Shown in pieces: positions 1,282-62,635 of a stretch of DNA of 64,000 nt. The translations under genes and the position numbers were made by a program. The stretch covers positions 32,001 to 96,000 of IMG/VR virus record IMGVR_UViG_3300045997_000112. One strand, written 5' to 3'. Under the pieces are notes generated by a model. That model ran no database searches, was not told where the DNA came from, and was given only the letters and a program-made list of their open reading frames with translations. Every line of letters starts with the position of its first letter. Position 1 is the first letter of the stretch. Origin of the DNA: a virus.

Positions 1282-1859
1282 GCGATGTCCTTCCCGTTCA
1301 GCTTGATCTTGGGAACGTCCTTGACCCGGTACGCATCGATGAACTCCTGGGGGATGTCCCCGGCACCCTGAATCTCGTCCATCCAGATCCCACCGGTCAG
1401 CTTGAGGCCATCGATCTTCTTGGTGGCCAGCTCCTTCAGGGCCTTGGCCTTGGCCAGCTCCCGCTCATTGTCCAGGGCATCCCGGATGCGTCGGGCCTCC
1501 TCCTCGCGGAGTGCTCCCATCAGGAAGGACTCACTGTGAGTCCGGGGCGCCAACATTGACTTCAGCTCCTGGAGGTGGCGCTCAGTCTGAGCAGGGGTCT
1601 CCATGCGAAAGAACGCAGGGTCCTTCTCCACCCTGGGGTTGGTGGGATCGATCGGCGTCAGCCGCACGCTGACCCGGACGGCATCCCGGGACCCGTCATC
1701 CTCGTGCCGGATCTGGACGCGGAAGTCACGGGGGAAGTCTGCCCTCTCGTAGACCTCGGCGATCAGCTTCCGCTCCGCCTCCACGAGGGCCATGTCCTGC
1801 GACCGCTCGATGTACTCCTTGTTGACCCAGACATCCGAGCCATACCTGTTCTCCGTCAT
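1278..1859 (-). CDS. Hypothetical protein
   Basis: ORF with phage-like codon use filling the gap after polA; start placed at MTENRY. Confidence 0.7.
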   Translation of the reverse strand: MTENRYGSDVWVNKEYIERSQDMALVEAERKLIAEVYERADFPRDFRVQIRHEDDGSRDAVRVSVRLTPIDPTNPRVEKDPAFFRMETPAQTERHLQELKSMLAPRTHSESFLMGALREEEARRIRDALDNERELAKAKALKELATKKIDGLKLTGGIWMDEIQGAGDIPQEFIDAYRVKDVPKIKLNGKDIA

Positions 1860-1861
1860 GA

Positions 1862-3829
1862 TCACTTTCCTTCCGCCCATGTGTTCCCGATGCCAACCTC
1901 GGCGATGAGAGGAACCTTCATCGCTCCGATGCTGACACCCTCCATGGCCTCCTTCAAGGCGACGCGAGTTTCCTCGGCGATCGCATCGGGGGCCAGGACG
2001 ACCAACTCGTCGTGTACCGTCAATAGAAGTCTAGCCTCGTCTGGGACCATCCTGTACGCCCGGACCATCCCGATCTTCATGATGTCAGCGGCGCTGCCCT
2101 GGATCAGGGTGTTGAACGCCTTGCGCTGCCCGGACCCGAACTGGCCGCGATCCCGGGACAGCAACTCCGGGATGTACCGCCGCCGCCCGACCACCGTGGT
2201 GACGTAGGGCATGGGGCGCTTGGCCCGGGCATCCCGGATCACTCGGGCTTTGAGGCGACCGACCGCCGGGAATCGGTGCTCGAAGTCATCGAGCAACTCC
2301 TTGGCCTTCCCCACGGTGACACCATCAATGCGGTCGGCCAGCTTGTCCGGCCCGATGCCGTACGACATCGAGAGGACGAGCTCCTTGCCCGCCGCTCGAG
2401 TGATGTCCAGCGTGTCCGCGATCTCCTGGTACAGATCCCGGCCCGACAGGTAGGCCGCCATCATGACCGGGTCCTCGGAGAGGCTGGCAATGATGCGGGG
2501 CTCGATCTGGGAGTAGTCGCCCACGACCACCTTGCAGCCGGGGTCCGCGATGAACAGTCCCCGGACCACCTTGCCGTACTTGCCCCGACTGGGGATGTTC
2601 TGCAGGTTGGGGTTGGACGAGGACATGCGCCCGGTCTCGGTACCGGTCTGGTTGAACTGGGTGTGCACCCGGCCGTTGCGGAGGTGGGGCTCCTTCACCT
2701 TGCCTGCCGTGGTGGTCCCGCCGAGGTAGGGCACCAGGTAGGTGTCCATCAGCTTGGCGTACTCCGCGTGCTCCAACATTGACTTGACCAACGGGTTGCG
2801 GGAGTGGTGCTCCAGGGAGTCCGCATCCGTGCTGGGCTGGCCGTTCTTCTTGGTCATCTTGTACGGCTTGAGTCCCTGGCCCTGTGGTTTGGGAGAGTAG
2901 AGCACGCTGATCTTGTCGGCCGGAGAGGCGAAGTTGAACTCCCGGCCCGCCCGGCGGTACGCCTCCTGACGGCACCGATCGAGTTCCGCCTGGATCTCGG
3001 CCTGGAACACGAGCATGGCGCCCCGGTCCACGAGGGTCCCGGTCATCATCATGGCCATCACGGGTTCGAGGACGTCCATCTCAAGCTTGAGCAGGTGCTC
3101 GACGCCCAACTCCTTGATGAGCTGCATCTGCCTTTGGTACAGAAGCCAGTCCATCTTGGCGTCGAGCAGGCTGTACTTGGCGACATCCCCGAAGGAGTGC
3201 AGCAGGATGTTCTCGCCGATGCCCTTGTCCATGGCATAGCCCAACCGGCGCTTCACGGCGGACTGCAGCTTCAGGTACTGGTGCTGGATCCTGGAGTCAA
3301 TGATGGTCTCCATGATCTGGGTGCAGGCGTAAGGCGGCGTGGGTATGCCGGGCAGGTACTTGGCGATGCTGGGAGCGTCGAACTTCATGTTGTGGGCGAC
3401 CTTGATCTGGTCTCCCATGAACAGGGGCTCGAGCGTGGTGAACACCTCGGTGCGGCTCAGCTGCTCAGGCGGGGGCCCGAAGACTGGGCGCATCCGGGAG
3501 TCGGCCTGGCTCACGTCACTGGCACGGAGGGACTTGCCCTCCTTCAACCGGGCCAGACCGGACTTGAGCACCGGCGTGCGGTACTCGAGGAGGTCCCCGT
3601 TGCGGAAGCCCATGGGGATGACGTCAGCCCGGCCATAGGTGGCAAGGCTGAGCCACGCCACGTCATTGATGGCCGGGTCCAGCCGGTCCCGGGGATCCTC
3701 TGCCTGCGTCTCGATGTCGAAGGCGAAGGCGTCCTGCTTGCGGTAGTACGCGAGCAGAGACGCCAACTGTTCGGAGGTGGAGACGACAGGAACGGCGGGC
3801 CGCATGCGACCCGCCGTCCCCAGTGCCAT
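1862..3829 (-). CDS. polA: DNA polymerase family A with 3'-5' exonuclease
   Basis: ExoI FDIET, ExoII HNMKFD, ExoIII YSLLD; TGRMSSSNPNLQNIP; motif A DYSQIEPR; motif B RAAGKELVLSMSYG; motif C VHDE. Confidence 0.97.
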   Translation of the reverse strand: MALGTAGRMRPAVPVVSTSEQLASLLAYYRKQDAFAFDIETQAEDPRDRLDPAINDVAWLSLATYGRADVIPMGFRNGDLLEYRTPVLKSGLARLKEGKSLRASDVSQADSRMRPVFGPPPEQLSRTEVFTTLEPLFMGDQIKVAHNMKFDAPSIAKYLPGIPTPPYACTQIMETIIDSRIQHQYLKLQSAVKRRLGYAMDKGIGENILLHSFGDVAKYSLLDAKMDWLLYQRQMQLIKELGVEHLLKLEMDVLEPVMAMMMTGTLVDRGAMLVFQAEIQAELDRCRQEAYRRAGREFNFASPADKISVLYSPKPQGQGLKPYKMTKKNGQPSTDADSLEHHSRNPLVKSMLEHAEYAKLMDTYLVPYLGGTTTAGKVKEPHLRNGRVHTQFNQTGTETGRMSSSNPNLQNIPSRGKYGKVVRGLFIADPGCKVVVGDYSQIEPRIIASLSEDPVMMAAYLSGRDLYQEIADTLDITRAAGKELVLSMSYGIGPDKLADRIDGVTVGKAKELLDDFEHRFPAVGRLKARVIRDARAKRPMPYVTTVVGRRRYIPELLSRDRGQFGSGQRKAFNTLIQGSAADIMKIGMVRAYRMVPDEARLLLTVHDELVVLAPDAIAEETRVALKEAMEGVSIGAMKVPLIAEVGIGNTWAEGK

Positions 3830-4581: not shown

Positions 4582-5097
4582 TCAGTGGGTTGTCAGTTTC
4601 TTCACTTCAGCGAGCCACTCGTCCCGGATGCGCTCCCACTCCTTGCGGATGAGGTCGGGCAGTTCGGGGAAGTGTGCCCAGTCGATGCGGTCGTCGTGCA
4701 GTTGGCCGCGCTCGTTGAGCAGTTTGAGGAAGGCCAGGATGGTCTCCTCGTTGTAGTAGTTCCGGACGGTGTTCTCGAACCGGAACCTGAACGGGGGCTT
4801 GGGGACGAACCCCTTCTGCTCCCAGAACTTGAGCGTCGGCCCCGACTTGCCGAGGATCTTGGCGAAGACGTTGGGCCGGTAGAACATGAAGACGTGGTCC
4901 GGGACCACCTCGATGGCGGTGGGCTTGCCCCAGTTCGCCTTGTTGAAGATGGGGTCGCTGGCCGGGCGGACCTTGAACTTGTCCACGTCCGGGGCGTCGT
5001 TCCCCCATCGGATGCGCTTGGTGGATCCGGGATAGGTCCGGATGACCTCCGGCTCCTCCTCGCTTCCCCCGAACATGGAGTCGATGACGTCAGGCAC
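4582..5097 (-). CDS. MerR-like winged-HTH DNA-binding protein
   Basis: FAKILGKSGPTLKFWEQKGFVPKP...RNYYNEE matches the MerR HTH pattern. Confidence 0.65.
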   Translation of the reverse strand: MPDVIDSMFGGSEEEPEVIRTYPGSTKRIRWGNDAPDVDKFKVRPASDPIFNKANWGKPTAIEVVPDHVFMFYRPNVFAKILGKSGPTLKFWEQKGFVPKPPFRFRFENTVRNYYNEETILAFLKLLNERGQLHDDRIDWAHFPELPDLIRKEWERIRDEWLAEVKKLTTH

Positions 5098-7588: not shown

Positions 7589-7803
7589 GGCGCGGGCTCC
7601 ACGAGGCGCACGATCAGGTACCAGTCGTACTGGTAGTCGAAGCCGACAGGGCCCTGCGGCACCCACTTGTCGACGCTGAGGACACGGTTGGCCATCTCCT
7701 GCACGGTCTCGTCGGGGGACACCTCCACGGCACGCACCACATCCTGTGCGTGGTCCCCCATGTTCACGCCGACCTTGGTCAGCATCACGCTTACGTTCTT
7801 CAC
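7585..7803 (-). CDS. Hypothetical protein
   Basis: GTG start overlapping the primase stop (GTGA). Confidence 0.65.
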   Translation of the reverse strand: MKNVSVMLTKVGVNMGDHAQDVVRAVEVSPDETVQEMANRVLSVDKWVPQGPVGFDYQYDWYLIVRLVEPAP

Positions 7804-8708
7804 CTGAATCTCCTCATGCGCTCTGCCAAACGGCTGGGCGCGTTCTCCGTCAGTTCTCGCATCTTCGCCCGGGCGTCTCCCGGATCCTTGATTCCGTCCG
7901 GCCACACGATAGAACGGTGGTCCGACACGACTGTGAGCAGTGCCTGCTCGACCTCCTTGGTCACCTCCCTCCCGGCGTCATCATTGTCGAACGCCAGGAC
8001 CAGGTGGTTCATCCTCTTGAGCTCCTGCATCTGGTACTCGGTGACGTTGGCCCCGTAGGTGGCCACCGCCTGCAGCCCGTGGGTGAAGCAGACCGCCACG
8101 TCCAGCGGGGACTCCACCACCAGCGTTGGGGCGTCCGAGTTGTGCTCGTACTCCGTGTTCAAGCCGAACAGGGAGAGCCCCTTCTTGATTCCCACCGGGG
8201 CGTTGCGGACGTACTTGCCGTCCTTGATCTGGATGCCCATCAGGATGCCGGAGGTGATGTGCCGAACGGGCAGGATCCAGGCGCCGCCGCTCGAGCGGAT
8301 CTCCAGCATCTCAGCCACGATCTTCGAGATCCCTCGGGACTCCAGCATCTCAACATTGGGACGCTGGAATGAGTCCAGATCAGCCTCGTCCATCACGGTG
8401 GGGACGTACAGCTCCCGGATGGGTACCCGCTCCAGTCGTCGTCGGAGCGCGGAGATCTGCTCATCCGGCTCGATCTCCTCGTCGATCTCGAGGTCCTCGC
8501 CCTTGAGGTCTCGCCACAGCAGGTAGGCGTTGGCCCGGTACCCGCAGGAGAAGCAGAAGCACAGCCCGCTCTCGACATTGAAGTAGAACGAGGGCTTGTG
8601 GTCCGGCTTGCCGGTGCGGGCCTCGTGGACCGGACAGAGCAGCCTGGCCTCGTCGCCGGACAGCTCGTAGTCATCGCCGACGAGACGGCGGAGGATCGGT
8701 TCGTACAT
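7800..8708 (-). CDS. dnaG: DNA primase (CHC2 Zn finger + TOPRIM)
   Basis: CPVH...KPSF...CFSCG zinc finger; VVESPLD and FDNDDAG TOPRIM motifs; start MYEPIL coupled to the helicase stop. Confidence 0.93.
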   Translation of the reverse strand: MYEPILRRLVGDDYELSGDEARLLCPVHEARTGKPDHKPSFYFNVESGLCFCFSCGYRANAYLLWRDLKGEDLEIDEEIEPDEQISALRRRLERVPIRELYVPTVMDEADLDSFQRPNVEMLESRGISKIVAEMLEIRSSGGAWILPVRHITSGILMGIQIKDGKYVRNAPVGIKKGLSLFGLNTEYEHNSDAPTLVVESPLDVAVCFTHGLQAVATYGANVTEYQMQELKRMNHLVLAFDNDDAGREVTKEVEQALLTVVSDHRSIVWPDGIKDPGDARAKMRELTENAPSRLAERMRRFR

Positions 8709-9955
8709 CAGGGCTGACCATAGACGTACGTCGGGGCGGAGGCCGAAACTTCCTCGAAGGTGCCGGTGGACCAGTCCCAATCGAGGTCGACCTCCGCTGG
8801 TCCACAGTTGCGGCTCGCCACAATCTTGAGCAGCCGGTACGCCTCATCCTCCTGGTCGCCACGCTCGAGACCGAAGATGACGTCCGAGTCCTGGTAGAAC
8901 GAGGACGAGTAGCCGATCGAGTTGGCGTCCAGCTTGTTCTTCTTCATCTTCCACGTCAGCGTCTGCGTGGTGATCACGATGGGGATGTTGAGGCGCTGGG
9001 CCAGCCGCTTGAGTGCCCGGGTGATGTTGGTCAGGGCCTGAGCGGTGTTGGACTCGCCGGTCACCTCGTCCACCATCAGGTAGACGCCGTCGATGAACAG
9101 CACGTCGGGCTTGTAGGACATGACCTGCGCGCCGATGGCGGACACCGTCTGGCCCTGCGTCGAGTCCATCAGGATGAATGGGTGAGCGCCCTTGAGGCTC
9201 TCGAGCCCCTTCTCGTACTTCTTCTCCTCGGACGCCACGAGGTCACCGTTGAGCAGGCGTCCGTGACTGAGCCCGAACTTCATCGCGTCGTAGCGCTTCT
9301 GCTGCTCCTCGTTGCTCATCTCGAAGGAGATGAAGGCGGGGGTGTACCCGGCCTCGTGCACGGTGGTGGCCATCCGGAGGGCCAGCTGGGACTTGCCGGT
9401 CTTGGGCGCGGCAATGATGGTGACCAACTGCTGGGGCTGGAGCCCCAACGTTGCCTTGTCGATGGTGGGGAACCCGGTGGAGATGCCGAGGAGCCCGCCC
9501 GGCCGGTTCTTCCGGGCCGTGTAGTCGTGGTACCGCTGCACCGGGTCATCGGTCAGGTTGACGATGCCGGTGTCGGTCATCGCGCCCTCGATCTCGGCGA
9601 TCGTCTTCATCGCCACCGCGAGGATGTCGTCGGCCGACCCGCGCTTCTCCAGCAGGGCCACCTGCCGCTCCACCATCTGGAACACGAGGTGGTGCCGGTG
9701 GTCGGCAAGGCTGGCATCGACAACCGCGTCGAGCCCGTCCTCAACCTTGACCAGCCGCAAGCTGGGGAACTCCCGCTTGATCATGGCGCCCGTGGGCACC
9801 TCGCTGTACTTGGCGTTGTGGCGACAGATGAAGTCGAAGGCGTCCCGGTAGTCCGGGCTCTTGAAGGTGTCCTTGGTGACGCCCCGGCGCAGGGGCGTGT
9901 CCACATCCCGCTCGAGAGCGATCCTGCTGATGAGCCGTGCATCTTGATCCGACAT
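8708..9955 (-). CDS. dnaB: DnaB-like replicative helicase
   Basis: GISTGFPTID, AAPKTGKS, SFEMS, FIDGVYL, LKRLAQRLNIPIV, QDSD. Confidence 0.95.
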   Translation of the reverse strand: MSDQDARLISRIALERDVDTPLRRGVTKDTFKSPDYRDAFDFICRHNAKYSEVPTGAMIKREFPSLRLVKVEDGLDAVVDASLADHRHHLVFQMVERQVALLEKRGSADDILAVAMKTIAEIEGAMTDTGIVNLTDDPVQRYHDYTARKNRPGGLLGISTGFPTIDKATLGLQPQQLVTIIAAPKTGKSQLALRMATTVHEAGYTPAFISFEMSNEEQQKRYDAMKFGLSHGRLLNGDLVASEEKKYEKGLESLKGAHPFILMDSTQGQTVSAIGAQVMSYKPDVLFIDGVYLMVDEVTGESNTAQALTNITRALKRLAQRLNIPIVITTQTLTWKMKKNKLDANSIGYSSSFYQDSDVIFGLERGDQEDEAYRLLKIVASRNCGPAEVDLDWDWSTGTFEEVSASAPTYVYGQP

Positions 9956-9966: not shown

Positions 9967-10350
9967 CTAGACGTTGAGCGACCGGGCCCCGAACGCTAAC
10001 GGACGGCGGCGGTCGATGATGTGCCGCACGTCGCTCTGCATGGCCACGTAGTGCATGGCCTGGGTCAGGTCCGCGAACACCAACCACTCATTGAACGGGT
10101 GGCTGTAGTGGTCGATGAACTTGATGACCTCCTCTGGGGTTACCGGGTCGTCCTCGTAGCCGAAGAGGACCATCTTCAAGCCTCGATCCCGCAGGTCGTT
10201 CACCAGGGCGATGTCCACGTCGTGGAGCATCATCTGGTGGCCAACCTTGGGGAAGAACCTGCCGGTGACGGCGGGCATCGCATCCACCACGGTGCTGGAG
10301 TGAACCAGGCACCGTGGTGGAGCGGTGTCGTCGAGGTCGTTGTGCAGCAT
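9967..10350 (-). CDS. Hypothetical protein (possibly degenerate HAD-like fold)
   Basis: Coupled start (TGATG) MLHNDL; lies between the loader-like gene and dnaB. Confidence 0.65.
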   Translation of the reverse strand: MLHNDLDDTAPPRCLVHSSTVVDAMPAVTGRFFPKVGHQMMLHDVDIALVNDLRDRGLKMVLFGYEDDPVTPEEVIKFIDHYSHPFNEWLVFADLTQAMHYVAMQSDVRHIIDRRRPLAFGARSLNV

Positions 10351-13248: not shown

Positions 13249-14282
13249 TTGATCACGCCCCGAACGGACGCGGCGATCTGCCAGAGCTGGTCCTCGTCGG
13301 CCATCTCCAGCATGACGCCGATCAGGTCCCGAAGGATGGCGTCGATGCCCCGCTGCGGGCGCCAGGCGGGATCCCCGAAGTTGTACGTGACGTACCCCTC
13401 GGGGCGCACGCTCTCCGTGATGGTGGTCTCGATGACCACGTCCTTGGCCTTGTCGGCGATGCGCTCGGCCTCAACCATGCCGTCCACGTAGCCCTCAAGG
13501 TGGGCCTCCATGTAGACGTCGGTGGAGACGGGCAGGCGGCCCTTCTCGTCGCGGGTCTCGGCCTTGGCGGCTGCAGCGGCGGTCGTTCCACTGTCCCGGA
13601 ACCCGACCTTGCCCTTCTCGCGGATGCTGTCCACGGTGATCGCCTTCTCGACGATCGCCTGCGTGACCGGGAGGGTCTCCGGCTCCATCATCTCCTTGGA
13701 CAGGGTGACGGGCTCGGCAACCTTGAGGGCCTCATCCACCGCCTTCTCGAACTCGGGGTTGGCCTCCTCGACCACCTTGGGCGCGGCCTTCTTGCGCGGC
13801 GCTCGGCGCTTCGGGACAGCGGGGACTTCGGGCAGCACTTCGGCCACGGGGGGCTCCTCTTCCTTGGGGATGTCCATGTGCTCGGGACCATCGCTGTGGT
13901 CCCCCTCCTGGCCGACATCGGACGGGATGTCGGGGACGACCTCGACCTCCGGCTCGTCGGGGACGATCTCGAGCTCCATGAGCCCGTCGTCGAGGGCGAG
14001 GTAGGTGGCACCAACCTTGGTGGCCTCCTTGACCAGGTCCTCATCAGTGGGGCCGAGGACGACCCAGCCCTTCTCCAGGGTGTCGAAGTCGGTGACGACC
14101 GGGACGTCGATGACGTCGAAGATCTCCTGGGCCCAGGAGTCCAAGTTCTCGCCGTCGTAGTTGAAGAAGACGATCTCGTGACTCTCGCTCCAGAGGGAGG
14201 GATCTCCCAGCAGGTCGAACAGGGTAGCCGTGGCCAGTGCGCGGTCCACGGTCTGGGGTGCGCCAACAATGCAGTACTTCAT
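13245..14282 (-). CDS. Acidic hypothetical protein
   Basis: AGGAG RBS before MKYCIV; globular N-terminus, then a disordered E/P-rich linker with KRRAPRKK. Confidence 0.8.
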   Translation of the reverse strand: MKYCIVGAPQTVDRALATATLFDLLGDPSLWSESHEIVFFNYDGENLDSWAQEIFDVIDVPVVTDFDTLEKGWVVLGPTDEDLVKEATKVGATYLALDDGLMELEIVPDEPEVEVVPDIPSDVGQEGDHSDGPEHMDIPKEEEPPVAEVLPEVPAVPKRRAPRKKAAPKVVEEANPEFEKAVDEALKVAEPVTLSKEMMEPETLPVTQAIVEKAITVDSIREKGKVGFRDSGTTAAAAAKAETRDEKGRLPVSTDVYMEAHLEGYVDGMVEAERIADKAKDVVIETTITESVRPEGYVTYNFGDPAWRPQRGIDAILRDLIGVMLEMADEDQLWQIAASVRGVIK

Positions 14283-14338: not shown

Positions 14339-15499
14339 TCAGACCGCGAGCCAGTTCACCTCGACCGTCTCAGCCTGGGATCCGATGTTCTCCAGGACCA
14401 GCACGAACCCCTGCGAGGTCACCTTGCGGACCCCGGCGAGCACCGGACGGGAGTTGACCTCCTGGGTGGAACCCGGCGTGGTGAGCGTGTAGGTGAGGGA
14501 CACGGACACCGAGGCACCCACCACACCGCCGTAGTTGGCCTCGTTCGCGGTGTCGTTGGGACCGAAGGCGATGGCGTTGTAGGTCCCGGCTGCGAACCCG
14601 GCCGCCCACTCGAGTGGAAGATCCACGGTATGCGTGGTGCCCGACGCGAAGTTCTTCACCACGTTGAGCTTGGGCGTGGCTGCCGGGTTGAACGACCCGG
14701 GAAGCCCTGCCGCGACGTTGTTGTACGGCCGGAAGGTGATGGAGTCCAGCGCATGCCCGGCCGCCGAGCCGATCTTGAACGTGACCTGGAGCTTGGTGGG
14801 CTGGGCTCCCGCAGGCAGGGCGAAGCCCCCGGGAAGGAGCACGAGGCCCCTCTGGTTGCCGTTGGACGTGGAGAACTGGCCGACGAGGAAGGTGGTCTTG
14901 TCGCCCTGCCAGGTGGTCGAGGCGCTCTCCCCGTAGGGCGAGTTGCCCGAGTAGCACCGGAAGGACCCCGCCGTGGCCGTCTTCACGCTGGAGGTGGTGC
15001 CCCCAGCGGACTGACCCACAGTCTTCTGCACCGGGGAGACCAGCACCTTGGGCGGCGTGGTGAACGATCCGGCTGGGAAGGAGACGTCGATGCCCTGAGG
15101 GCCAAGGTTGGGCGCCAGGAGGCGCTCCGCCAGTACCCCGGAGACGATCGATGCATCCTTGCCCGGGGCTCCGTTGGTGCCATCCCGACCTCGAGGGATC
15201 TCGAAGGTGAGCTGCCCCGTGGCTCCGTCCCAGAGGGCCTTCGCCGGGGAGGTGGCCTCAACACTGGTGGCCGACGCCCCATTGATGGGAGTGGCGGCCG
15301 CCTTCTCCAGCGCGTCGATGCGGAGACGCAGGGAGCCCGTCTTCTCGCCCGCGATCTTGATGCCGATGTCCCGCTGTACAGCCAGGACCCAGTCGATCGC
15401 GTTCTGGTGCAGCGTGGTGTGCTGAGACGCGTCCAGCGTGGCGCTGGGAAGGAGTGCTGCCCCAGTCGGATCCAGGGCGTCGGGGAACCGGCTGGCCAT
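14339..15499 (-). CDS. Tail fibre/receptor-binding protein with interrupted H-type-lectin-like domain
   Basis: N-terminal FPDALD...H...VLAVQRDIG anchor; VSFPAGSFTTPPKVLVS ... VTSQGF...VNWLAV. Confidence 0.7.
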   Translation of the reverse strand: MASRFPDALDPTGAALLPSATLDASQHTTLHQNAIDWVLAVQRDIGIKIAGEKTGSLRLRIDALEKAAATPINGASATSVEATSPAKALWDGATGQLTFEIPRGRDGTNGAPGKDASIVSGVLAERLLAPNLGPQGIDVSFPAGSFTTPPKVLVSPVQKTVGQSAGGTTSSVKTATAGSFRCYSGNSPYGESASTTWQGDKTTFLVGQFSTSNGNQRGLVLLPGGFALPAGAQPTKLQVTFKIGSAAGHALDSITFRPYNNVAAGLPGSFNPAATPKLNVVKNFASGTTHTVDLPLEWAAGFAAGTYNAIAFGPNDTANEANYGGVVGASVSVSLTYTLTTPGSTQEVNSRPVLAGVRKVTSQGFVLVLENIGSQAETVEVNWLAV

Positions 15500-15725: not shown

Positions 15726-17597
15726 TCAACTGTATTCGACCTCGCCCACCCAGAGTTGGCTGAACTCCGGGTCGTCTGAGGTGATCATCTGAGCGCCCAC
15801 CCCACTGGGGAGGTAGGCCGGGAGGGTCCCGTACAGCTTGGCGATGAGGACCCGCTCGAACGAATCCAGCGAGGACTCCCCCGAGGGGTCGCGCTCCCGA
15901 GCCTCCATGGTCACGTTGGGGTCGTCCATGACCGCGGTGGTGTCATCCATGACGACCATGCCGGACACCAATGTTGAGACCCCGGTGTCCATGACGACGG
16001 CAACCGACCGAGGGTCCCGGAACGCGTAGGGGCGCCCCGTCGACAGCGAGATGCACCCCAGGCTGACGACTGCGTCCCCGGTGACATTGACGCTCCACAC
16101 CACGTACCGGCTGCCTGCCGGGGCGAGCACCGGCTCGAACAGCGCGCCATCCCAAAGGCCGTCGTGGACGGTGTCCACCGCCAGGTTCTCGCTGTACAGC
16201 GGATCTCCCTGATCATCGAGGAACCCGATGTCGGCCGAGATGGTGCACGGTGCCGAGGCGTAGTAGCGGAACCGGAACTGGTACAGCTGCCCGGGTGTGG
16301 CCTTGGCGGCGAACTCCGGGACGAACTGGCCATTGATCTTCTTGGACCCGAACCGCAGGGTCTCCCCGGAACGGGGCTGGAGTCGGTGGACCCACCCCAC
16401 CGCAGGCGACGGGAACCGGGAGTCCCACCACGGGTCGTCCACCCCGGGGATCAGCGGGGGATTGAGGAGCACGCCCATCGCGGGGCTGGAGTCGAACGAG
16501 TCCCACTCGTCGAACCACACGCCCTCGCCGTCGTAGACGTCCTCCCAGACGTCCACCCATTCATGCAGCCGGTTGATGGGCCACTGGCTCTGGAAGTTCT
16601 CCTCGTACCCCACGCACGGGATCGAGGTCCATTCCCCGCCCTCGGCCGAGACGCTGTACTCGTCTGCCGGGGTGTTGGACGGGATGTTCCACGGGTTGTC
16701 CGGGCAGGTGTCCGATCGGTCGAGGAGCAGGTTGAGCGGCCCCACCACCTGGGTGGGGAACCCGGTGACGGTCTCCACGTACCGCTCGAGCCCGGCGTAG
16801 CTGCCCTTGGCCATGGTGATCTGCCGGTAGTTGGCCAGGATGTGCTTGAGCCGGTGGCTGACCACCCGGTCGGTGAAGAACGCCTCCTCGGTGGGGCCCA
16901 TGCCGAAGGACCTCAACAATGGGAGCACCATGTTCGGGTGGATCCGCTCCGGGGTGTCCACCATGAGCTCGCCATCGGTGATGATCGTGTCCAGGACGTA
17001 CCCGACATCGGCCATGAACGAGGTCTGCGGGTTCATCATGTGCTCGCCGTAGATCATCCCGCCGGTCATGACGCCACGGGGCAGTGCGTCCATCCCGTTG
17101 ATGATGCCGCCGTAGTTGCCGGGGATGACCTTCCACCCACGCCCCCGGTAGTCCCAGGGGAGCCACTTCACGAAGTCGCCGGTGGCCGGGTCGAGCAGCG
17201 GCTCCGACACGTAGACGGACAGGTACAGGACCGTTCCTGGCGCCACGGGTCCCAAAGACGCGTCACCGGAGCGGAAGGAGAAGGTGCGCCCCGACGGCAG
17301 CTCCTCGTCCACCAGAACCGGAGTCCGGTCCTCGAAGACCAGCTTCAGGTCCCCACCCTCGTCGGTCCAGTGAGCGAACCGGTCCGGGTTGGGCGGGAAG
17401 TACGTGGAGCTCTTCAGCACCACCACGCGGGAGTTGCCCGGGTAGTCCCAGGAGATAGGGCCAACCTGAACCAGGACGTCGGCGCCGTTCAACCCCTCGG
17501 GGTCGTACCCAAGGTTGGTGATCTTGACCGCCACCTCAGGACGGACGCGGTCGCCATAGACGTCCTCGCCGTATCCGAAGTCCTGGTACTTGGCCAT
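15726..17597 (-). CDS. Baseplate wedge/tail protein I-like
   Basis: LPLLRSFG...YRQITMAKGSYAGLERYVETVTGF (P2 gpI-type KGT motif); downstream of baseplate J. Confidence 0.75.
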   Translation of the reverse strand: MAKYQDFGYGEDVYGDRVRPEVAVKITNLGYDPEGLNGADVLVQVGPISWDYPGNSRVVVLKSSTYFPPNPDRFAHWTDEGGDLKLVFEDRTPVLVDEELPSGRTFSFRSGDASLGPVAPGTVLYLSVYVSEPLLDPATGDFVKWLPWDYRGRGWKVIPGNYGGIINGMDALPRGVMTGGMIYGEHMMNPQTSFMADVGYVLDTIITDGELMVDTPERIHPNMVLPLLRSFGMGPTEEAFFTDRVVSHRLKHILANYRQITMAKGSYAGLERYVETVTGFPTQVVGPLNLLLDRSDTCPDNPWNIPSNTPADEYSVSAEGGEWTSIPCVGYEENFQSQWPINRLHEWVDVWEDVYDGEGVWFDEWDSFDSSPAMGVLLNPPLIPGVDDPWWDSRFPSPAVGWVHRLQPRSGETLRFGSKKINGQFVPEFAAKATPGQLYQFRFRYYASAPCTISADIGFLDDQGDPLYSENLAVDTVHDGLWDGALFEPVLAPAGSRYVVWSVNVTGDAVVSLGCISLSTGRPYAFRDPRSVAVVMDTGVSTLVSGMVVMDDTTAVMDDPNVTMEARERDPSGESSLDSFERVLIAKLYGTLPAYLPSGVGAQMITSDDPEFSQLWVGEVEYS

Positions 17598-36987: not shown

Positions 36988-37025
36988 GAGGGACGACTCC
37001 TATGTCGAAGGAAGAAGAGTGGGGT

Positions 37026-37799: not shown

Positions 37800-37870
37800 T
37801 AGTCATCCTTTGTCCGTTGGGTTTCTCCAAGGGAGACTATATGACCCAACATTGGGGATCGCCATACAGG

Positions 37871-39613: not shown

Positions 39614-39622
39614 GGCTGGAGG

Positions 39623-39994: not shown

Positions 39995-40008
39995 GGCCAA
40001 CGCCCCTG

Positions 40009-40464: not shown

Positions 40465-40617
40465 TCAGCCCTTAGCCCCAACCTTGGCAGCAGCGATGCA
40501 CTCCTCGCAGAGCCGACCCGCGTGTTTCTGGTCGATATCGACGTACCCGCACGCGGGCCACTTGCCGCACGACCTGCAGAACGCCGACCTGGATGGTTGG
40601 TTCACCACTGCCTGCAT
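40465..40617 (-). CDS. Small Zn-finger protein (50 aa)
   Basis: Manual translation MQAVVNQPSRSAFCRSCGKW...LCEECIAAAKVGAKG; GAGGAG RBS. Confidence 0.6.
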   Translation of the reverse strand: MQAVVNQPSRSAFCRSCGKWPACGYVDIDQKHAGRLCEECIAAAKVGAKG

Positions 40618-42963: not shown

Positions 42964-43162
42964 GGGCCTTGACCTCCCTCACGATCACCACGAGCACCTC
43001 CGAGTAGAACTCGGCCTCGTCAACATTGCCTGATCGAAGGTTACGGCTAACCGAGCTCATTGCACTCTGGGCAGAATCCAGAAGGTCCGAAGTCGACAAT
43101 TTCTTCGCACGCCTCGCAGCGACGTCGTGTGTGACCTTCAGCGGCTTCTTCCTCCACCACAT
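42956..43162 (-). CDS. Small hypothetical protein
   Basis: GGAGG RBS; overlaps the terL start. Confidence 0.65.
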   Translation of the reverse strand: MWWRKKPLKVTHDVAARRAKKLSTSDLLDSAQSAMSSVSRNLRSGNVDEAEFYSEVLVVIVREVKARG

Positions 43163-43448
43163 CGAAATCCTCCTCCGCCTGCTCCCGGCTGTAGTCCCTC
43201 GTGGGCGTGTACCCGATCAGCGCCCCACTGAGTGCGCGATCCATGGCCACATCCTCGGGCAGGCGGGGACCCCACCAGCCGAGGACGAAACCGTGGCGAA
43301 GCTTGGGCAAGCGGAAGACGAGAGGGCGGGACACCCGATACGGCCAGGTGACCTCCTGGGTCTTGCCCCGATCGATCAGCGGGAAGTCCGTGCTGGGGTA
43401 GCTGAACTTGTGCGTGAACAGCCGTCCAATGTTGTGGACCTCGGGCAC
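43047..43448 (-). CDS. Hypothetical protein
   Basis: GTG start overlapping the upstream stop; C-terminal CEAC/CPEC overlaps the next ORF. Confidence 0.55.
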   Translation of the reverse strand: MPEVHNIGRLFTHKFSYPSTDFPLIDRGKTQEVTWPYRVSRPLVFRLPKLRHGFVLGWWGPRLPEDVAMDRALSGALIGYTPTRDYSREQAEEDFDVVEEEAAEGHTRRRCEACEEIVDFGPSGFCPECNELG

Positions 43449-46003: not shown

Positions 46004-46244
46004 CCAGGGCCTCCGGTTCAGGCTCAGGATCGGGAGCCTTCTTGAGCACGCGGTCCATCCGGTACACCTCCACACCCGCCCACACCCCAAGGATGACCAG
46101 TCCCGCGCCAATGAGCGCGGCCGGAGCCGCACCGTTGACGGCGTCCTGCTTGTAGACGTAGGCACCCCCGAGCATGAGGAGCACTGCGAGCACCAATACC
46201 GGCAGGCTGCGGAGCCACCTCCAGCCTTCCTCGGAAATGGTCAT
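45990..46244 (-). CDS. Two-TM membrane protein (holin candidate)
   Basis: Two hydrophobic helices and a charged C-terminus. Confidence 0.6.
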   Translation of the reverse strand: MTISEEGWRWLRSLPVLVLAVLLMLGGAYVYKQDAVNGAAPAALIGAGLVILGVWAGVEVYRMDRVLKKAPDPEPEPEALDEVG

Positions 46245-48559
46245 AGTGCCGCCACCGCCGTCTGGAACGTGGCCCAGTCAGTCGCCCCAGCGACCAGGGC
46301 CTTGAACTCGGTCTTCGTGAGCGCGTTCAAGCTGGACCCAGCTGCTGTTGGCTGAGCGACCTTGTCCACCACGAGCACCGGGTTCGCCGGGTCGGTGTTG
46401 TTCTGGTGGACGGTCAGGACTGAAGCCCGACGGATCCACTCCTTGAGCGTGGAGCCGTACACATTGGCTCCGTCAGAGGTCTGCATGCGTCCCAGCTTGA
46501 AGTTGCCCGGTGAGCTCTCCATGCTGGCCCAGACCGCCGCGCCCCCGGAGATGGCTGCGAGATCCGGGTAGATCTGCCCATTCGTGCCTGGAGTGGTTGC
46601 CAGCGCCAGATCGATGTCCTGCGACCCAGCCGGAAGGGCGTCCGCCCGGACACAGATGTAGTTCGGGTCGTACTTGTCCACGAACAGGTGCAGATCGGCG
46701 GCGATCTCAACCGTGGTCGCCTCGACGGCCCCGACCCGGGCATCCAGCTCGCTGATGTAGCCCACAAGATCGGTGTGCACGGACACCGCACGCGGATCGC
46801 CGATCTGCTGCTGCAGCGGGGTGACGATCTGCTCCTCGATGTACGCCAGTGACAGCGGCTCCCACACACCCTCACCGGACGTGCCCAGCACATTTCCCGC
46901 CGGGGTATCGGCCGGGGCCGCAACGTCGGTGAGCCAGTTCAACGGACGGGCGGGCAGCGGAGATCCGACCCAGTCGCCTTCCGTGTTCTTGCTCAGGAGC
47001 ATCCCTGGCACAGCAGTCGAGACGTCGACGTCGGACAGGTCATCAAGCGCTCCGGCCACACCGGACGGCCCCTGCTCTCCAGGGACGCCCTGTGGTCCCT
47101 GCTCGCCGGGAGGCCCCTGCGGCCCGGTTCCCCCCGACCCTCCGGAGCCCCCAGAGGAGGCGGGGACGAAGATCAGGTGGTCGCTGCCGAGGATGGCAAT
47201 GTTGCCCGGATCCGCACTGACCTTCTTGGCGGCCGCCGTCTCGAGATCCCGGACCTGGAGCTCGATCTTCTCGACCTTGGTGATCGCGGCGCCGGTCAGG
47301 TTGAGCACGTCCAGGCGGAAGGTGCTCAGATCCGTGTCCAGACGGACCTGGGTCTCGCCCTGAGCCTCGATGATCTTCTCGTCGACGTACTTCTTGTTGG
47401 TCAGGTGCAGTGGGGTGGTGGGCGCGGCGAAGCCAACAATGGGGCCCCGGGACTCCAGGCTGGCCTGGCCGGACACCGGGGCGGCCAGGGACCAGACACC
47501 GGTGCCCCCGTCCCAACTGAGTGCGCGATCGGGATCGTTGTCGGGGATCAGCGAGAAGGTGGCCTTGTCGGGAGCCGAGAGGACCACCGGCCCGAACTGG
47601 AACGTCCCCACGAGGGAGAAGCTGCCCTCGAGCTCGTCGCCGGAGTTGAGCACCCCGGTCTGGTCGGTGAGCATCCCCGGATGCGTGTGATCAATGGGAG
47701 AGAACACACCCTCGGCCTGTGCCAATGGGATAGCGTCATCCGGAGCAGTGGCCTCCCGCACGCGCAGGGCCACGGGCTCCTCAACGTGAAGGGTCTGCAC
47801 CTCCAGGCTGTCGGCCACCAGGGCCGCGTTGTCCTTGGGGAAGGTGTGCTCGTCCACGTAGCTCCGAGTCACCAAGGTGGTCTCGGGATCCTGCTTCGTG
47901 GTTCGGGGCGCCTGGACTGAGCCCGTGAGCGTTCCGCCGTACAGCGGCAGACGATCGGCGATCAGCTGCTCGAGCTGTGCCTGAACGGTCGCCGCGTCCA
48001 GCCTGGTCTGCAGCCCCTGGTGATCGGAGTCGGTGTGCAGCAGCGATGCGTCGTCGTCGACCTGGAGGACGTTGGCCGGATCCTCCGACAGCCTCCAGGT
48101 GTTGAGGCCGCCAATGTTGAGCCAGACGCCGTCATGCTTGACGACCAGATCACCCGAGCCCGCATCTCCCGCCCAGCTCGGAGCGGGGCCCACCACGAGG
48201 TAGACCTTGTCCGCGTCAGCGGGCTCCGGGGATGCAGCTGCCACGATCCCCGAGATGGCGTCGGTGGCCAGACCCACCGGGCCCCGAGGCCCTGCCGGAC
48301 CGGTGGGGCCCTGATCACCCTTGGGTCCGGGATCCCCGGGGTCGCCCTTGCCGTGGACACCCTGGGGTCCCTGGGGCCCCGTCTTGCCTTGCAGGCCGCG
48401 CTTGCCCTGCGGACCGGGCCGCCCGACCCCAGGAGGGCCGGGCTGCTTGTCCGCGTAGATGAGCTCGACCATCTTCTGGAGGTCGCGGCGAGTGATGTAC
48501 CCGTACTCCGGGTCACTCGGTGACTTGTCCAGGAGCGCGAGCGCGTCCTTCAGAGACAT
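46241..48559 (-). CDS. Collagen-like fibre protein
   Basis: Two Gly-X-Y tracts; LPLYGGTLTG, HLTNKKYVD, LDDLSDV, LTDVAAPADTPAG motifs. Confidence 0.88.
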   Translation of the reverse strand: MSLKDALALLDKSPSDPEYGYITRRDLQKMVELIYADKQPGPPGVGRPGPQGKRGLQGKTGPQGPQGVHGKGDPGDPGPKGDQGPTGPAGPRGPVGLATDAISGIVAAASPEPADADKVYLVVGPAPSWAGDAGSGDLVVKHDGVWLNIGGLNTWRLSEDPANVLQVDDDASLLHTDSDHQGLQTRLDAATVQAQLEQLIADRLPLYGGTLTGSVQAPRTTKQDPETTLVTRSYVDEHTFPKDNAALVADSLEVQTLHVEEPVALRVREATAPDDAIPLAQAEGVFSPIDHTHPGMLTDQTGVLNSGDELEGSFSLVGTFQFGPVVLSAPDKATFSLIPDNDPDRALSWDGGTGVWSLAAPVSGQASLESRGPIVGFAAPTTPLHLTNKKYVDEKIIEAQGETQVRLDTDLSTFRLDVLNLTGAAITKVEKIELQVRDLETAAAKKVSADPGNIAILGSDHLIFVPASSGGSGGSGGTGPQGPPGEQGPQGVPGEQGPSGVAGALDDLSDVDVSTAVPGMLLSKNTEGDWVGSPLPARPLNWLTDVAAPADTPAGNVLGTSGEGVWEPLSLAYIEEQIVTPLQQQIGDPRAVSVHTDLVGYISELDARVGAVEATTVEIAADLHLFVDKYDPNYICVRADALPAGSQDIDLALATTPGTNGQIYPDLAAISGGAAVWASMESSPGNFKLGRMQTSDGANVYGSTLKEWIRRASVLTVHQNNTDPANPVLVVDKVAQPTAAGSSLNALTKTEFKALVAGATDWATFQTAVAAL

Positions 48560-50299: not shown

Positions 50300-50458
50300 G
50301 CGCCATCCCTCCAGACTGATGGGCCCAGACTAACGGCGCGGGCCCGCCTCACGAGGGCCTAAATCCTCGTCGTCCTCATCGAAGGGGAGGAACAGGACCC
50401 GAGACACAACATTGGCCGCCCCGACGAGCAGGGCGGCCAACGCGCGGCGGAGCAAGGG

Positions 50459-50899: not shown

Positions 50900-51672
50900 A
50901 TCTTCTCCTTGCTCTGGGACGGGACGTCCTTCTCGCCGGGGTTGGTGTCCTTGTCAACCACGGCACCCTCGGGACGGTCCTTGACCGGCGCGGTGAGGTA
51001 GCCCACGTCCGGATCCTGGTCCACGCGCATCGGAACATCCACGGGGAGGTTCGAGGGAGCAGGGTCGGACACCAGCTCGGGAGCGATGCGCCCGGGAACC
51101 AGCACCGGGGTGCTCTGCGGGTTCACGATGGGCGGCGGCACCACGTAGGGCAGCGGGGGCACGTTGCTCGGCGGGACCACCCATGCGGCAGGCACGTTGT
51201 GGGACTGCTCCGGCCAGATGTACGGAATGGCCTCAGGAACTTCCGGGTTGGGAACCGGCACCTTCATCGGGACCAGCCCGGGAATCTGCTCCACCTGCTC
51301 CGGGGTCATGTACGGCACCAGCTGGGGCACCAACATTGGACCCGGAACCGGAACCTTGTACGGAGTCTGCTGTGGAACAGACACGGGTGCCACGGGGATC
51401 GTGTACGCGTATCCCGGAACGGCGCCCGGGACTGCCTGGGGCACTGGGTTGGGAACGGGGAACGGAATCGCCTGGGCGATCTCCGTCGGCGTGGGAGCTT
51501 CCTCCAGCAGCAGGGCGTGGATGCTGCCCAGGCGCACGGCAGCCTGGTCCTCGACGGGAAGCAGGATCACCTCGGCACCCTGGCCGGAACTGCGCTCGTA
51601 GGTGGCGAACATCTTGCCGTCAGAGGAGGTGAGGGACTTGGCGAGATACGTGGCGAGTACGGTGACCATCAC
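50896..51672 (-). CDS. Pro/Val-rich repeat protein
   Basis: AAGGA RBS; short globular N-terminus followed by VP/IP/PY repeats. Confidence 0.75.
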   Translation of the reverse strand: MMVTVLATYLAKSLTSSDGKMFATYERSSGQGAEVILLPVEDQAAVRLGSIHALLLEEAPTPTEIAQAIPFPVPNPVPQAVPGAVPGYAYTIPVAPVSVPQQTPYKVPVPGPMLVPQLVPYMTPEQVEQIPGLVPMKVPVPNPEVPEAIPYIWPEQSHNVPAAWVVPPSNVPPLPYVVPPPIVNPQSTPVLVPGRIAPELVSDPAPSNLPVDVPMRVDQDPDVGYLTAPVKDRPEGAVVDKDTNPGEKDVPSQSKEKM

Positions 51673-52738: not shown

Positions 52739-53311
52739 TCATCGTGGTGCCACCGCGAAGTAGTCCACGAGGCAGTCCGTCGCGTTCGTGCGGTTGACGT
52801 GGGCTGTGAATCCGGCAGCGTCCACCGCGCTCACAGTAGCGTTGACGTAGATGTCGCCGGGTGTGCTGGTCCTCATGCTGACGACGACGACGGGGACGCT
52901 GTTGAACGGACTGGAGAAGTTGACCCGCGCCTCTCGGTTACCAGCACCACCGTTGACCCATGCCATGCCTGCTCGGATCGAGTACGGGTGGTTCGGCCCA
53001 GCCGGACCCGTTCCTCCTGCTGGACCTTGCCCGCCTGCTGGACCTTGCCCGCCTCCGGGGCCTTGAGGTCCCTGGGAGCCCACGGGACCTACTCCACCGG
53101 CAGCACCGCGATCACCTTCCGGTCCCGTCGGACCTTTGTCACCCGTCGGCCCTTTGTCACCCGTCGGACCCTTGATGGTCCCGCCACTGGGGCCAGTGGG
53201 ACCGGTGTCACCCTTCGGCCCTATCGGACCCCGTTCCCCACGCGAACCGGGAGCCACAGGTATCGGGACCATCTGTCCCGTTGTTGGGTCGCGGTACTCA
53301 ATGTTGGCCAT
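52739..53311 (-). CDS. Collagen + H-type-lectin-like protein (paralog 3)
   Basis: [18 protein letters not shown] repeats, [16 protein letters not shown]...VDYFAV. Confidence 0.85.
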
Positions 53312-55178: not shown

Positions 55179-55179
55179 G

Positions 55180-60882: not shown

Positions 60883-61596
60883 TTACGAGACGAGGTTGTA
60901 GACGTCGCCAGTGGCCGTGTCCAGGTAGAGGTCGCCGACAACCGCGTTGGGAACATTGGTGGGTATCCCGGCCCCGATGAACCACCCGTTGCCTCGAGCT
61001 CCCGGAGCTCCCTGCGGACCGACGTTGCCCTGAGGACCGGCCAACGACAGACCAGAGCCCCACGCCCCAGATGTTCCGCCCGTCCGGGGTCCGTACAGCG
61101 TCTTGCCCGACAGGTCCAGGTAGTAGTCACCGTCCCTGCCGATATCGGCAGCGGGGACACCTGCACCCGAGAGGATCGTGGACCCGGCGTCACCCTGCGG
61201 TCCCTGGATCTGTCCCAGGTTCTGGTGCCCTGCAGCGCCAGCGGCCGCAACATCCGTGGAGATCCACATATCGCCGGTGCTGGTGACGAAGTAGATGTTC
61301 CCCGGCACGGAGTCGGCGGGAAGGTCCTCAACATTGGTGACCGACCCTTCGATCGAAAGACCGGGGCCCCGATCACCGGTCTCGCCCTTCAGGGAGATTC
61401 CGGAGAGTGGCCATGCGGTTGCGCCTCGAGGCCCGAACAGCACCTTGGTGGTCTCGGAGAAGAAGTAGTCGCCCTCTGCCCCCAGATCATGCGGGGGGAG
61501 GAGGGCCACATCGGTGTAGATCTGGGAACCGGGAGCTCCCGCTTGTCCAGGATCGCCCTGTGGGCCCTTGATGTTTCCTGCCTTGGCCCACGCCAT
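60883..61596 (-). CDS. Collagen-like fibre protein
   Basis: Repeats of G.G.P....G..GDYYLD......YGP separated by short Gly-X-Y tracts. Confidence 0.88.
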   Translation of the reverse strand: MAWAKAGNIKGPQGDPGQAGAPGSQIYTDVALLPPHDLGAEGDYFFSETTKVLFGPRGATAWPLSGISLKGETGDRGPGLSIEGSVTNVEDLPADSVPGNIYFVTSTGDMWISTDVAAAGAAGHQNLGQIQGPQGDAGSTILSGAGVPAADIGRDGDYYLDLSGKTLYGPRTGGTSGAWGSGLSLAGPQGNVGPQGAPGARGNGWFIGAGIPTNVPNAVVGDLYLDTATGDVYNLVS

Positions 61597-61597
61597 G

Positions 61598-62635
61598 TCA
61601 GTTCCCTCCGGTCAGCGAGATGATCTCGCGGGTGTACACGTCCCAGGTGGTCGTATCCAGGTAGGCGTCATTCTGATCCCCAATGGTGGGAGCAGGTGCG
61701 CCCCGACCGAAGATCCACTCGGATCCATCAACTCCGTCGACTCCCGGATCACCGGTGTCGCCCTTCTCTCCCCGAGGTCCTTGCTCCCCTTGTGGCCCGA
61801 CGGGGCCTTGGGGTCCCCGGATGGGGCCGACGTTCTGCCACGCAGATCCGTCCCACACCACGCCATCGCCAATGGCGGCCGGATGATCCGGGCCCACTGG
61901 AGCGCCTGAGGTGTCGGTGAGGATCCACATGTCCCCGACAGAGCCCTGGAGCGTAGTGATGTAGGACCACGTCCCGGATCCCCGGATGGTGACCCCGGAC
62001 CCGTCCGCACCGGGCGTGCCCTGGGGTCCGGTGGGGCCGACTCTCCCATCAAACCCACGGGGGCCCTGCGGTCCCGTGTCTCCCTTGGGCCCGGGAACAC
62101 CCTGCTGGCCCTGGGGTCCCTCGGGACCCACAAGGTTGGAGAGCATGTTCCACGCCGAACCGTCCGAGATGGCCAGCTCACCGGAGTCCGTCACCAGATA
62201 GGCGTCTCCGGCCGGGACGCCAGCATTGGGCCACCCCGGGAGCATGGACTCGGACCGCACAACATTGGTGATGTGGATCCCCTGGCCCTGAACGCCTGGC
62301 GCGACCACGCCCTCGAGGGGAACCCACCGACTTCCATCCCATACGACAACGGCATCGAACTTCGGAGCCGGGGACAGCAACGCCTTGTTGACGATCGCCA
62401 TCACGCCTGCGGGGAGTCCACCCGCAGCTGCCTCGGCCTCCAGGCGCTCGTACTCCGGTCGGGTGCTGATCACTCGGACGTAGGGCCCGTACACCGCTGC
62501 GGCGTCCGGAACCAGCGCCATCAGGTCGAAGAGGACCCGGCGCAGGTCCACCACATCCACGTAGCCCTGATCCGGATCTCCCGGAAGAGGACCCAAGGGG
62601 ATGAGTGCGACCTCAATCTTCCGAGGATCGATCAT
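61598..62635 (-). CDS. Collagen-like fibre protein
   Basis: Shared N-terminal anchor motif, WDGSRW/WDGSAW knots, Gly-X-Y tracts. Confidence 0.88.

Follow-up and report, generated by a model that had tools for sequence, protein, structure and literature searches.

Short words that recur throughout a genome are known from several systems. Chi words, i.e. GCTGGTGG in E. coli, which is read by RecBCD, and AGCGG, which is read by AddAB, are GC-rich. Further examples are HIP1 (GCGATCGC) of cyanobacteria and the DNA uptake sequences of Neisseriaceae and Pasteurellaceae. Primases start at short words as well, i.e. 5'-GTC with preferred pentamers in the case of T7 gp4, and 5'-GTT or GCT in the case of T4 gp61; to our knowledge, such primase words have not been reported as strongly enriched. 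For lambdoid phages, an enrichment of Chi has been described (PMC3784561), and for Cluster A mycobacteriophages, stoperators and operators have been described together with L5 gp71 (PMC9283540, PMC6550527). Here we characterize the octamer CAACATTG in a stretch of viral DNA of 64,000 nucleotides (nt), i.e. bases 32001-96000 of the 105,425-base-pair (bp) IMG/VR record IMGVR_UViG_3300045997_000112, which has 65% GC. This stretch is called the window in the following. The octamer is far more frequent than expected, its excess lies in the DNA rather than in the encoded proteins, and it is private to one phage lineage.

An earlier note on the window had listed 20 exact copies of CAACATTG, and every one of them was found, 13 on the + strand and 7 on the - strand. 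Its rough zero-order expectation was less than one copy; dinucleotide-preserving shuffles of the window yielded 0.58 copies on average and never more than 4. The reading frames and peptides that it quoted were correct when re-checked with our own gene calls, which place four copies, not two, in intergenic DNA (37847, 43021, 50407, and 53299). The copies are given below in window coordinates; sense and antisense are relative to the genes on the - strand.

1551..1558, + strand, antisense in gene 1278-1865(-), TCA ATG TTG (S-M-L)
2774..2781, + strand, antisense in the DNA polymerase A gene, TCA ATG TTG
8351..8358, + strand, antisense in the primase gene, C AAT GTT G (N-V)
15969..15976, - strand, sense, TCA ACA TTG (S-T-L)
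18903..18910, - strand, sense, C AAC ATT G (N-I)
22092..22099, + strand, antisense, C AAT GTT G (N-V)
25906..25913, + strand, antisense in the M23-peptidase tail gene, C AAT GTT G
31395..31402, + strand, antisense, C AAT GTT G
32840..32847, - strand, sense, C AAC ATT G
33790..33797, + strand, antisense, C AAT GTT G
37847..37854, + strand, intergenic, located behind the portal gene, with a conserved TATAGT box 5 nt further on
43021..43028, + strand, intergenic, 58 nt upstream of the start of the terminase large subunit
43427..43434, - strand, sense, C AAC ATT G
47197..47204, - strand, sense, collagen-repeat fibre gene 46241-48559
48112..48119, - strand, sense, collagen-repeat fibre gene 46241-48559
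50407..50414, + strand, intergenic, directly after a GC-rich hairpin on the gene strand
51331..51338, + strand, antisense, CCA ATG TTG (P-M-L)
53299..53306, - strand, within a 345-nt stretch without a called gene
61329..61336, + strand, antisense, C AAT GTT G
62260..62267, + strand, antisense, C AAT GTT G

The whole genome contains 33 copies, compared to 4.2 predicted by an order-3 Markov model. Of these, 26 are genic and 7 are found in the 8% of non-coding DNA, and the density in intergenic DNA is thus about three times that in genes. When synonymous codons were shuffled within genes, with the codon usage of each gene kept, 8.9 copies remained, i.e. the 7 intergenic ones, which are fixed, and about 2 genic ones. 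T-ending codons are almost never followed by A or T, and they make up 10-30% before C or G; because of this next-base effect a stricter null was used, in which third bases were permuted only among codons with the same box, amino acid, and following base, so that proteins, codon usage, and every dinucleotide, including those at codon junctions, were preserved. Under this strict null 2.2 genic copies are expected, and the observed 26 represent a 12-fold excess (Poisson P about 2e-19). The earlier note had named a codon-aware null as a check, and the excess persists under it.

Each class of frame and orientation is enriched separately under the strict null, and for off-frame copies the count is 6 versus 0.23 expected (P about 2e-7). 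The earlier note had proposed selection on the DNA rather than on the encoded protein, and these values support selection or a bias at the DNA level. Most of the genic copies (21 of 26) share one frame, xxC AAY RTT Gxx, in which 12 antisense copies encode Asn-Val and 9 sense copies encode Asn-Ile, and the other 5 are in other frames. AAT followed by GTT accounts for 20% of the Asn-Val pairs versus about 1% expected, whereas the cheaper pair AAC GTT is not enriched. Similarly, ATT is used in 30% of cases after AAC, and in 0-2% after GAC, CAC, and TAC. GAT GTT and other pairs of two rare codons are at expectation. The codon pairs enriched on the antisense mirror those enriched on the sense as exact reverse complements. 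Taken with the 7 copies between genes, this locates the signal at the level of duplex DNA, not at that of translation.

The earlier note had treated the octamer as a lone pseudo-palindrome, but it turned out to top a degenerate family with the consensus C-A-A-C-[A/C]-T-T-G. The CAAC half is more strictly specified, and weaker variants exist at positions 3, 6, and 8. Other members are CAACCTTG (30 copies), CATCATTG (21), CAACAATG (14), and CAACATTC (11). The two most enriched hexamers of the genome are the cores of the first two forms, AACATT (55 vs. 16.6 expected) and AACCTT (50 vs. 21.6); AAGATT, AACAAT, ATCAAT, and ATCATT are enriched about two-fold, and AACGTT (11 vs. 8) and AAGCTT occur about as often as expected. 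For the perfect palindrome CAACGTTG the enrichment is slight (9 vs. 4.1), and CAACATCG is mildly depleted (7 vs. 13.6). The word includes the 5' C: when a G follows, the core is present in 41 of 105 sites with a preceding C and in 4 of 38 sites without it (Fisher P = 0.001).

The second form, CAACCTTG, is represented by 26 genic copies versus 4.3 expected under the strict null. Together, CAACATTG and CAACCTTG occur about once per 1.7 kb on both strands, and they occupy 52 of the 217 positions at which the proteins permit one of them (about 24%). The copies of CAACCTTG in the window are the following.

9742..9749, + strand, AAG GTT on the gene strand
10242..10249, + strand
13718..13725, + strand
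14012..14019, + strand
15103..15110, - strand, AAC CTT on the gene strand
17510..17517, - strand
19556..19563, + strand
21357..21364, - strand
22727..22734, + strand, off-frame, CAA GGT TGG
22899..22906, + strand
29295..29302, - strand
30511..30518, + strand
31824..31831, + strand
33320..33327, - strand, off-frame, ACA ACC TTG
33991..33998, - strand
38698..38705, - strand, portal gene, with the core AACCTT kept in the relative L001 (see below)
40479..40486, + strand, intergenic
41169..41176, + strand, terminase gene
62131..62138, - strand

An equal enrichment of unrelated AT-rich words was also checked. AT-rich hexamers as a class are not enriched (ratios of 0.93-1.21 for W-rich hexamers), so that general clustering of A and T was rejected as the cause. 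Runs of at least four A/T are ten-fold depleted. As a separate observation on composition, TTAA is absent (0 vs. about 98 by base composition), all tetramers of A and T only fall short 6- to 30-fold, and, under a codon-aware null, stretches of five or six C or G are two- to four-fold low.

Along the genome, the core hexamers are distributed evenly over the strands (53 on + and 52 on -), without polarity or a strand switch. With respect to the coding strand, the CAACATTG copies are split 21 vs. 12 by orientation. The core hexamers have no positional bias along genes (P = 0.82), and the octamers lean weakly to the 5' side, a marginal effect (P = 0.046). Spacing more regular than a Poisson process, which had been suggested as a test, was not obtained: the coefficient of variation for CAACATTG is 0.77, inside the random range of 0.70-1.29, and no regularity was seen globally. 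Regular spacing thus found no support, neither for CAACATTG alone nor globally, and only short-range avoidance holds, i.e. 8 gaps of <200 bp versus 18.7 expected (P = 0.001, with the null drawn from encodable positions only). The intergenic copies are located 26-108 nt from gene starts, and no common promoter-like architecture was found among them. A promoter or operator element was rejected, as the copies lack a link to gene starts, a fixed distance to a -10 box, or a shared architecture. Pairs of nicks on opposite strands were rejected as well, because the orientations of neighbouring sites are patternless.

For comparison, we analysed related phages. The nearest named ones are Streptomyces phage BRock and its kin, with identities of 53% for the portal and 36% for the polymerase. 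Uncultured relatives are closer (portal identities of 66-76%) and mostly have 40-50% GC. Scans of viral and metagenome contigs for still closer relatives yielded only a strain with 99% identity, represented by two IMG/VR contigs of another sample (L003 and L081), and L001, which has 84% nucleotide identity over window 36009-40107 (4.1 kb). The 99% strain shares 33 core hexamers with the window phage, in the same orientation, and differs at 1; an assembly or base-calling artefact is thereby excluded. Among the 34 sites and 186 one-step precursors only this 1 change occurred, i.e. there is no excess flux. In L001, 5 core hexamers were found versus 1.7 expected (P = 0.03), a density similar to that of the window phage. 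The earlier note had named conservation in related phages as a further check; in L001, the only close relative, the genic sites are mostly elsewhere. The intergenic site at 37847 is kept in L001 in flipped form, with a centre that reads CA or TG depending on the phage.

No excess was found in the other relatives, i.e. L002 (portal identity 76%, 62% GC), several contigs of 62-66% GC, 39 metagenome loci, and BRock. Low-GC relatives have about 0.4-1.1 core hexamers per kb by chance alone; the window phage has 0.5 per kb versus 0.16 expected. These densities would be in keeping with a reader for which sites were defended during a rise in GC. In five actinomycete genomes (Streptomyces, Nocardia, Micromonospora, Actinosynnema, and Amycolatopsis) the word occurs 11-27 times per 6-10 Mb, at the level of a reversed-word control and 100-250 times more sparsely than in the phage. 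A sample of 151 Actinomycetota genomes, with the phage's own host not identified, contained no genome with a true excess (three genomes flagged as unpublished, G023, G053, and G125, were used only for this statement). One of them, G067, had appeared as an enriched host-type genome, with 6 times the count of the reversed-word control, yet at its 54% GC the count is the one expected from an order-3 model (73 vs. 58 in 400 kb), so that it was a false lead. Thus, a check of candidate hosts, also named in the earlier note, gave no excess in the 5 and 151 genomes sampled. A literature search for the octamer returned primer-sequence noise only.

In its behaviour, the word comes closest to Chi, uptake sequences, and HIP1, which are density words, and to stoperators, which are phage-wide sites, and it lacks the features that define each of them. 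Like Chi, it is short, far above expectation, located in genes in several frames, and present about once per few kb, and it resembles a signal for coverage or identity rather than a gene-control site. In contrast to Chi, which is enriched in the genome of the host and polar with respect to replication or DNA ends, the phage word is AT-rich, is found on both strands in a 53:52 ratio, and has no excess in the sampled host-type genomes. HIP1 and uptake sequences are likewise octamer-scale words that lie in coding DNA at a cost in codon choice and are kept in density while sites turn over. However, they are genome-wide words of cells, which are shared by phages only if these infect such hosts. Among the 5 and 151 Actinomycetota sampled, none had an excess of the phage word. 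In addition, HIP1 is a perfect palindrome, whereas the palindrome CAACGTTG is scarcely enriched in the phage.

The likeness to stoperators is that dozens of copies of a phage-specific site are spread over the genome, also inside genes. Stoperators, however, are 13-14 bp long, asymmetric, oriented with transcription, conserved within the cluster, tied to a repressor, and found in temperate phages. The phage word has 8 bp, is degenerate, and follows neither an orientation rule (21 vs. 12) nor gene starts; of 5 core sites, the 84% relative shares 2 and more distant relatives share none. Neither a repressor-type domain above threshold nor an integrase was seen in the proteins scanned. The differences in length, orientation, conservation, and repressor support the distinction from L5-type stoperators that had been drawn from the sequence before.

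Our tentative reading is that a phage-encoded factor recognizes the octamer and that selection for coverage maintains it as a recognition word; we give this a little less than an even chance. CAACATTG would be the commonest form of a degenerate 8-bp word whose density is held by selection on the DNA. About one copy would serve each kilobase stretch, in either orientation and in genic or intergenic DNA, a second copy nearby would add nothing, and individual copies would be gained and lost while the density persists. We infer selection rather than a mutation bias from several features: the context required to either side of the variable base extends over 6-8 bp, copies off-frame or between genes call for unrelated changes, deamination fails on the numbers (see below), sites avoid each other at short range, and strains that differ by 1% show no excess flux. 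The reader would probably be a sequence-specific phage protein that acts in DNA replication or DNA processing, which we favour over gene control, and its role could be lagging-strand priming, the loading of a replication or recombination factor, or the marking of phage DNA as own. A word that is specific, lies at the duplex level, is indifferent to orientation and genes, extends over all modules, avoids itself at short range, is kept in density, and is private to a lineage points to a coverage word and not to an operator, promoter, stoperator, or polar signal; control of transcription is an unlikely role.

The first concrete candidate for the reader is encoded in the window, although we consider its involvement doubtful.

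7800..8708, - strand, DnaG-type primase with zinc ribbon and Toprim (Pfam), candidate reader only

T4-type primases start at 5'-GTT, and the reverse complement of the word, CAAKGTTG, contains 5'-GTT. One site per about 2 kb per strand would be similar to the spacing of Okazaki fragments, and sites on both strands, at any place, with nearby duplicates being redundant, are what a priming or loading signal would be expected to show. As with known primase words, a short template word would be present on both strands every 1-2 kb, independent of genes. In contrast, known primase words have 3-5 nt, and the phage word carries dyad-like C...G flanks. A further variant of the favoured reading, which we regard as rather unlikely, is a private identity code, i.e. 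a phage enzyme would work productively only on DNA with CAACMTTG about every kilobase. Such an enzyme could be a primase, a replisome loader, or a Chi-like controlled nuclease that acts with the RecA, RuvC, and Cas4-type exonuclease of the phage.

Several points weigh against a coverage word that is read by a phage factor. The excess in L001 is only marginal, and the 2 of 5 core hexamers found at the same place are about the neutral expectation, so that purifying selection on single sites is not demonstrated. The reader may have been inherited from low-GC relatives and the sites defended as GC rose, but high-GC relatives with homologous replication genes have no such word, which weakens the idea of defended ancestral sites. 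DnaG-type primases normally read trinucleotides, and the dyad-like C...G flanks are left unexplained by a single-strand reader. Among about 90 proteins scanned, there was no helix-turn-helix protein above threshold, no methyltransferase, and, by Pfam, no SprT-like protein. The dimeric binding protein that the earlier note had envisaged as reader is unproven, and its two named candidates are unsupported, i.e. the MerR-like helix-turn-helix protein (4582..5097, 171 amino acids) has 18.2 bits with Pfam MerR, below the cut-off of 21.6, and the basic protein at 39623..39994 matches no family. The reader could also come from the host.

Alternatively, a context-specific bias in mutation or repair could make the word without any function, e.g. 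through a sequence-specific enzyme or a repair pathway that turns common codon pairs such as AAC ATC G into AAC ATT G in one step. The enriched in-frame forms can indeed all be reached from the commonest codon pair by C-to-T changes at CpG, the genic sites turn over relative to L001 at a roughly neutral rate with a similar density, and CAACATCG is mildly depleted, as noted above. Nevertheless, we judge this explanation unlikely. T-ending codons are overall no commoner before G than before C, and the null already preserves the junction dinucleotides. The bias would need a context of 6-8 bp on both sides, as illustrated by the dependence of ATT on a preceding AAC, the avoidance at short range is unexpected under mutation, the comparison of the 1% strains revealed no excess flux, and the off-frame and intergenic copies would require several unrelated changes. 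Deamination of methylated AACGTT was rejected as a specific source, because AACGTT is not depleted, the excess of AACATT (about 38) is larger than this source could supply, and AACCTT cannot be reached by that route. Avoidance of restriction sites in the synonymous alternatives was also rejected, as AAC ATC still predominates and ACGT shows no depletion.

A somewhat slimmer chance is given to the possibility that the word is the target of a DNA-modifying enzyme, whose mark would protect or identify phage DNA; a transglycosylase similar to tRNA-guanine transglycosylases (TGT) or DpdA, an unrecognized methyltransferase, or a nickase could act in this way. The phage encodes a 477-amino-acid protein outside the window (genome 13905-15338(-), L161), which matches phrog_887, "queuine tRNA-ribosyltransferase" (E = 5e-25), and has no sequence match in Pfam, NCBIfam, or the PDB. 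In its predicted structure, strands and helices alternate over residues 1-260 and form a barrel that is modelled with confidence. Among solved structures, the top Foldseek matches of the model are DpdA (7ui4, a DNA preQ0 insertase) and bacterial TGTs, with E about 3e-4 and target-normalized TM-scores of about 0.5. Behind the barrel there are four invariant Cys, as at the zinc site of TGTs. The triplet TGT, which is the element that TGTs read in tRNA, is present in the reverse complement CAATGTTG. Two papers (PMC7544227, PMC10484667) indicate that DpdA enzymes of phages can have motif specificity.

On the other hand, BRock encodes a homologue (gp36), yet has no enriched word, the sister word gives GGTT and not TGTT, and the fold match of the model is weak, with generic barrel enzymes scoring too. 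Neither genes for preQ0 synthesis nor a methyltransferase were found among the proteins scanned, and a protective mark alone gives no reason for selecting more targets. A restriction-modification target is not indicated either: a methyltransferase domain is absent in about 90 proteins, and the word is enriched, not avoided. The enzyme may instead act on tRNA. The only tRNA of the whole 105-kb genome is a tRNA-Asn with the anticodon GTT and the loop CTGTTAC (window 35796-35870, - strand), and TGTs naturally act on tRNA-Asn(GUU). The phage may carry a 7-deazaguanine modification of its DNA or its tRNA, and the likelihood that the TGT/DpdA-like protein is linked to the word is low. Asn is also the amino acid encoded by most in-frame copies; a link of the word to the tRNA was rejected, because off-frame and intergenic copies contradict it and the loop shares only TGTT with one form of the word.

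A smaller chance still is assigned to a host word that the phage has copied, i.e. a Chi-like stop signal for the end-processing nuclease of the host, a tag of the uptake type, or a site for one of the host's nucleoid proteins. In some phages that rely on host recombination, the Chi of the host is over-represented (PMC3784561), and one copy per 3 kb in several gene frames is reminiscent of Chi in E. coli. A broadly actinomycete host is suggested by the restriction-type avoidance of GCCGGC (1 vs. 88 under a codon-aware null), CCGCGG (3 vs. 77), and CACGTG (2 vs. 33), together with the best matches of a sugar dehydrogenase. However, the word is at control level in the five actinomycete genera, the 151 sampled genomes contain no true excess, G067 being explained by its composition, and the word has no strand polarity and differs from the GC-rich Chi words. 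The phage's own RecA, RuvC, and Cas4-type exonuclease make it less dependent on host recombination.

Further explanations, i.e. a preference for codon pairs in translation, a remnant from an ancestor of low GC, or an error of sequencing or assembly at a modified palindrome, are largely refuted and have very little left in their favour: although 21 of 26 genic copies have a common frame that includes an Asn codon, the sole tRNA of the phage is tRNA-Asn, close relatives have 40-50% GC, and CAACATTG is one transition away from the palindrome CAACGTTG, these explanations are opposed by the off-frame and intergenic copies, the enrichment of AAT GTT and not of the cheaper AAC GTT, the survival of the excess in the within-gene shuffle, GAT GTT and other double-rare pairs at expectation, and the same sites in the same orientation in the independent 99% strain.

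Our gene calling predicted 144 genes, which cover 92% of the genome, and those in the window are all on the - strand. A protein family scan of the window and the coordinates of two further genes gave the following features.

Window, containing the copy at 2774, family A DNA polymerase (DNA polymerase A gene)
Window, SNF2 helicase and DnaB-type helicase
Window, SPP1-type portal, M23-peptidase tail protein, and collagen-repeat fibres
40627-42963, - strand, terminase gene with a LAGLIDADG intein
46241-48559, collagen-repeat fibre gene with two CAACATTG copies

The intein segment of the terminase gene (about 0.75 kb, window about 41300-42060) is missing in the 99%-identical contig L003, i.e. its presence is polymorphic between near-identical phages. 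L003 also differs from the genome by a 0.55-kb insertion at 67796/67797 and by a divergent segment of 1.1-1.2 kb at 76225-77430. The nearest portal relatives (66-70% identity; loci L004-L070 and L220-L257) are contigs of about 90 kb with 40-52% GC, indicating a GC shift of more than 20 points within the phage family. The phage has a rich set of repair and recombination genes, comprising a T4 endonuclease V-type pyrimidine-dimer glycosylase (L161:9271-9681, +), an ATP-dependent DNA ligase (L161:462-1541, +), and RecA (L162:13521-14567, -, extending into window 1-567), with RuvC and a Cas4-type exonuclease also encoded. A cassette at L162:1906-8155 (genome 19906-26155), with domains confirmed by Pfam, encodes a PIG-L deacetylase, WbqC, a sugar dehydrogenase with 45-48% identity to genes from Streptomyces and Nocardia, a family 2 glycosyltransferase, a lysyl oxidase, and a LamG protein. 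Furthermore, CCAACCCAAAAG is found in the loops of hairpins with differing stems, e.g. at L161:2152-2186, 4087-4123, and 7329-7355. The copies are all on the + strand in early regions at both ends of the genome (ACCCAAAA, n = 13), and partial copies are found at window 21991, 34016, and 42599.

In the case of Chi, uptake sequences, and stoperators, finding the reader uncovered a mechanism each time. If a phage enzyme reads the octamer, this would be an example of a virus marking or servicing its own DNA and would provide a sequence handle that separates phage from host DNA. As an identity code, the word would allow the phage to tell its own DNA, with 1 copy per 1.7 kb, from host-type DNA, with about 1 per 400 kb. 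If the cause is mutational, it would represent a bias with an unusually long context, and a reason for caution when words in genomes are read as signals.

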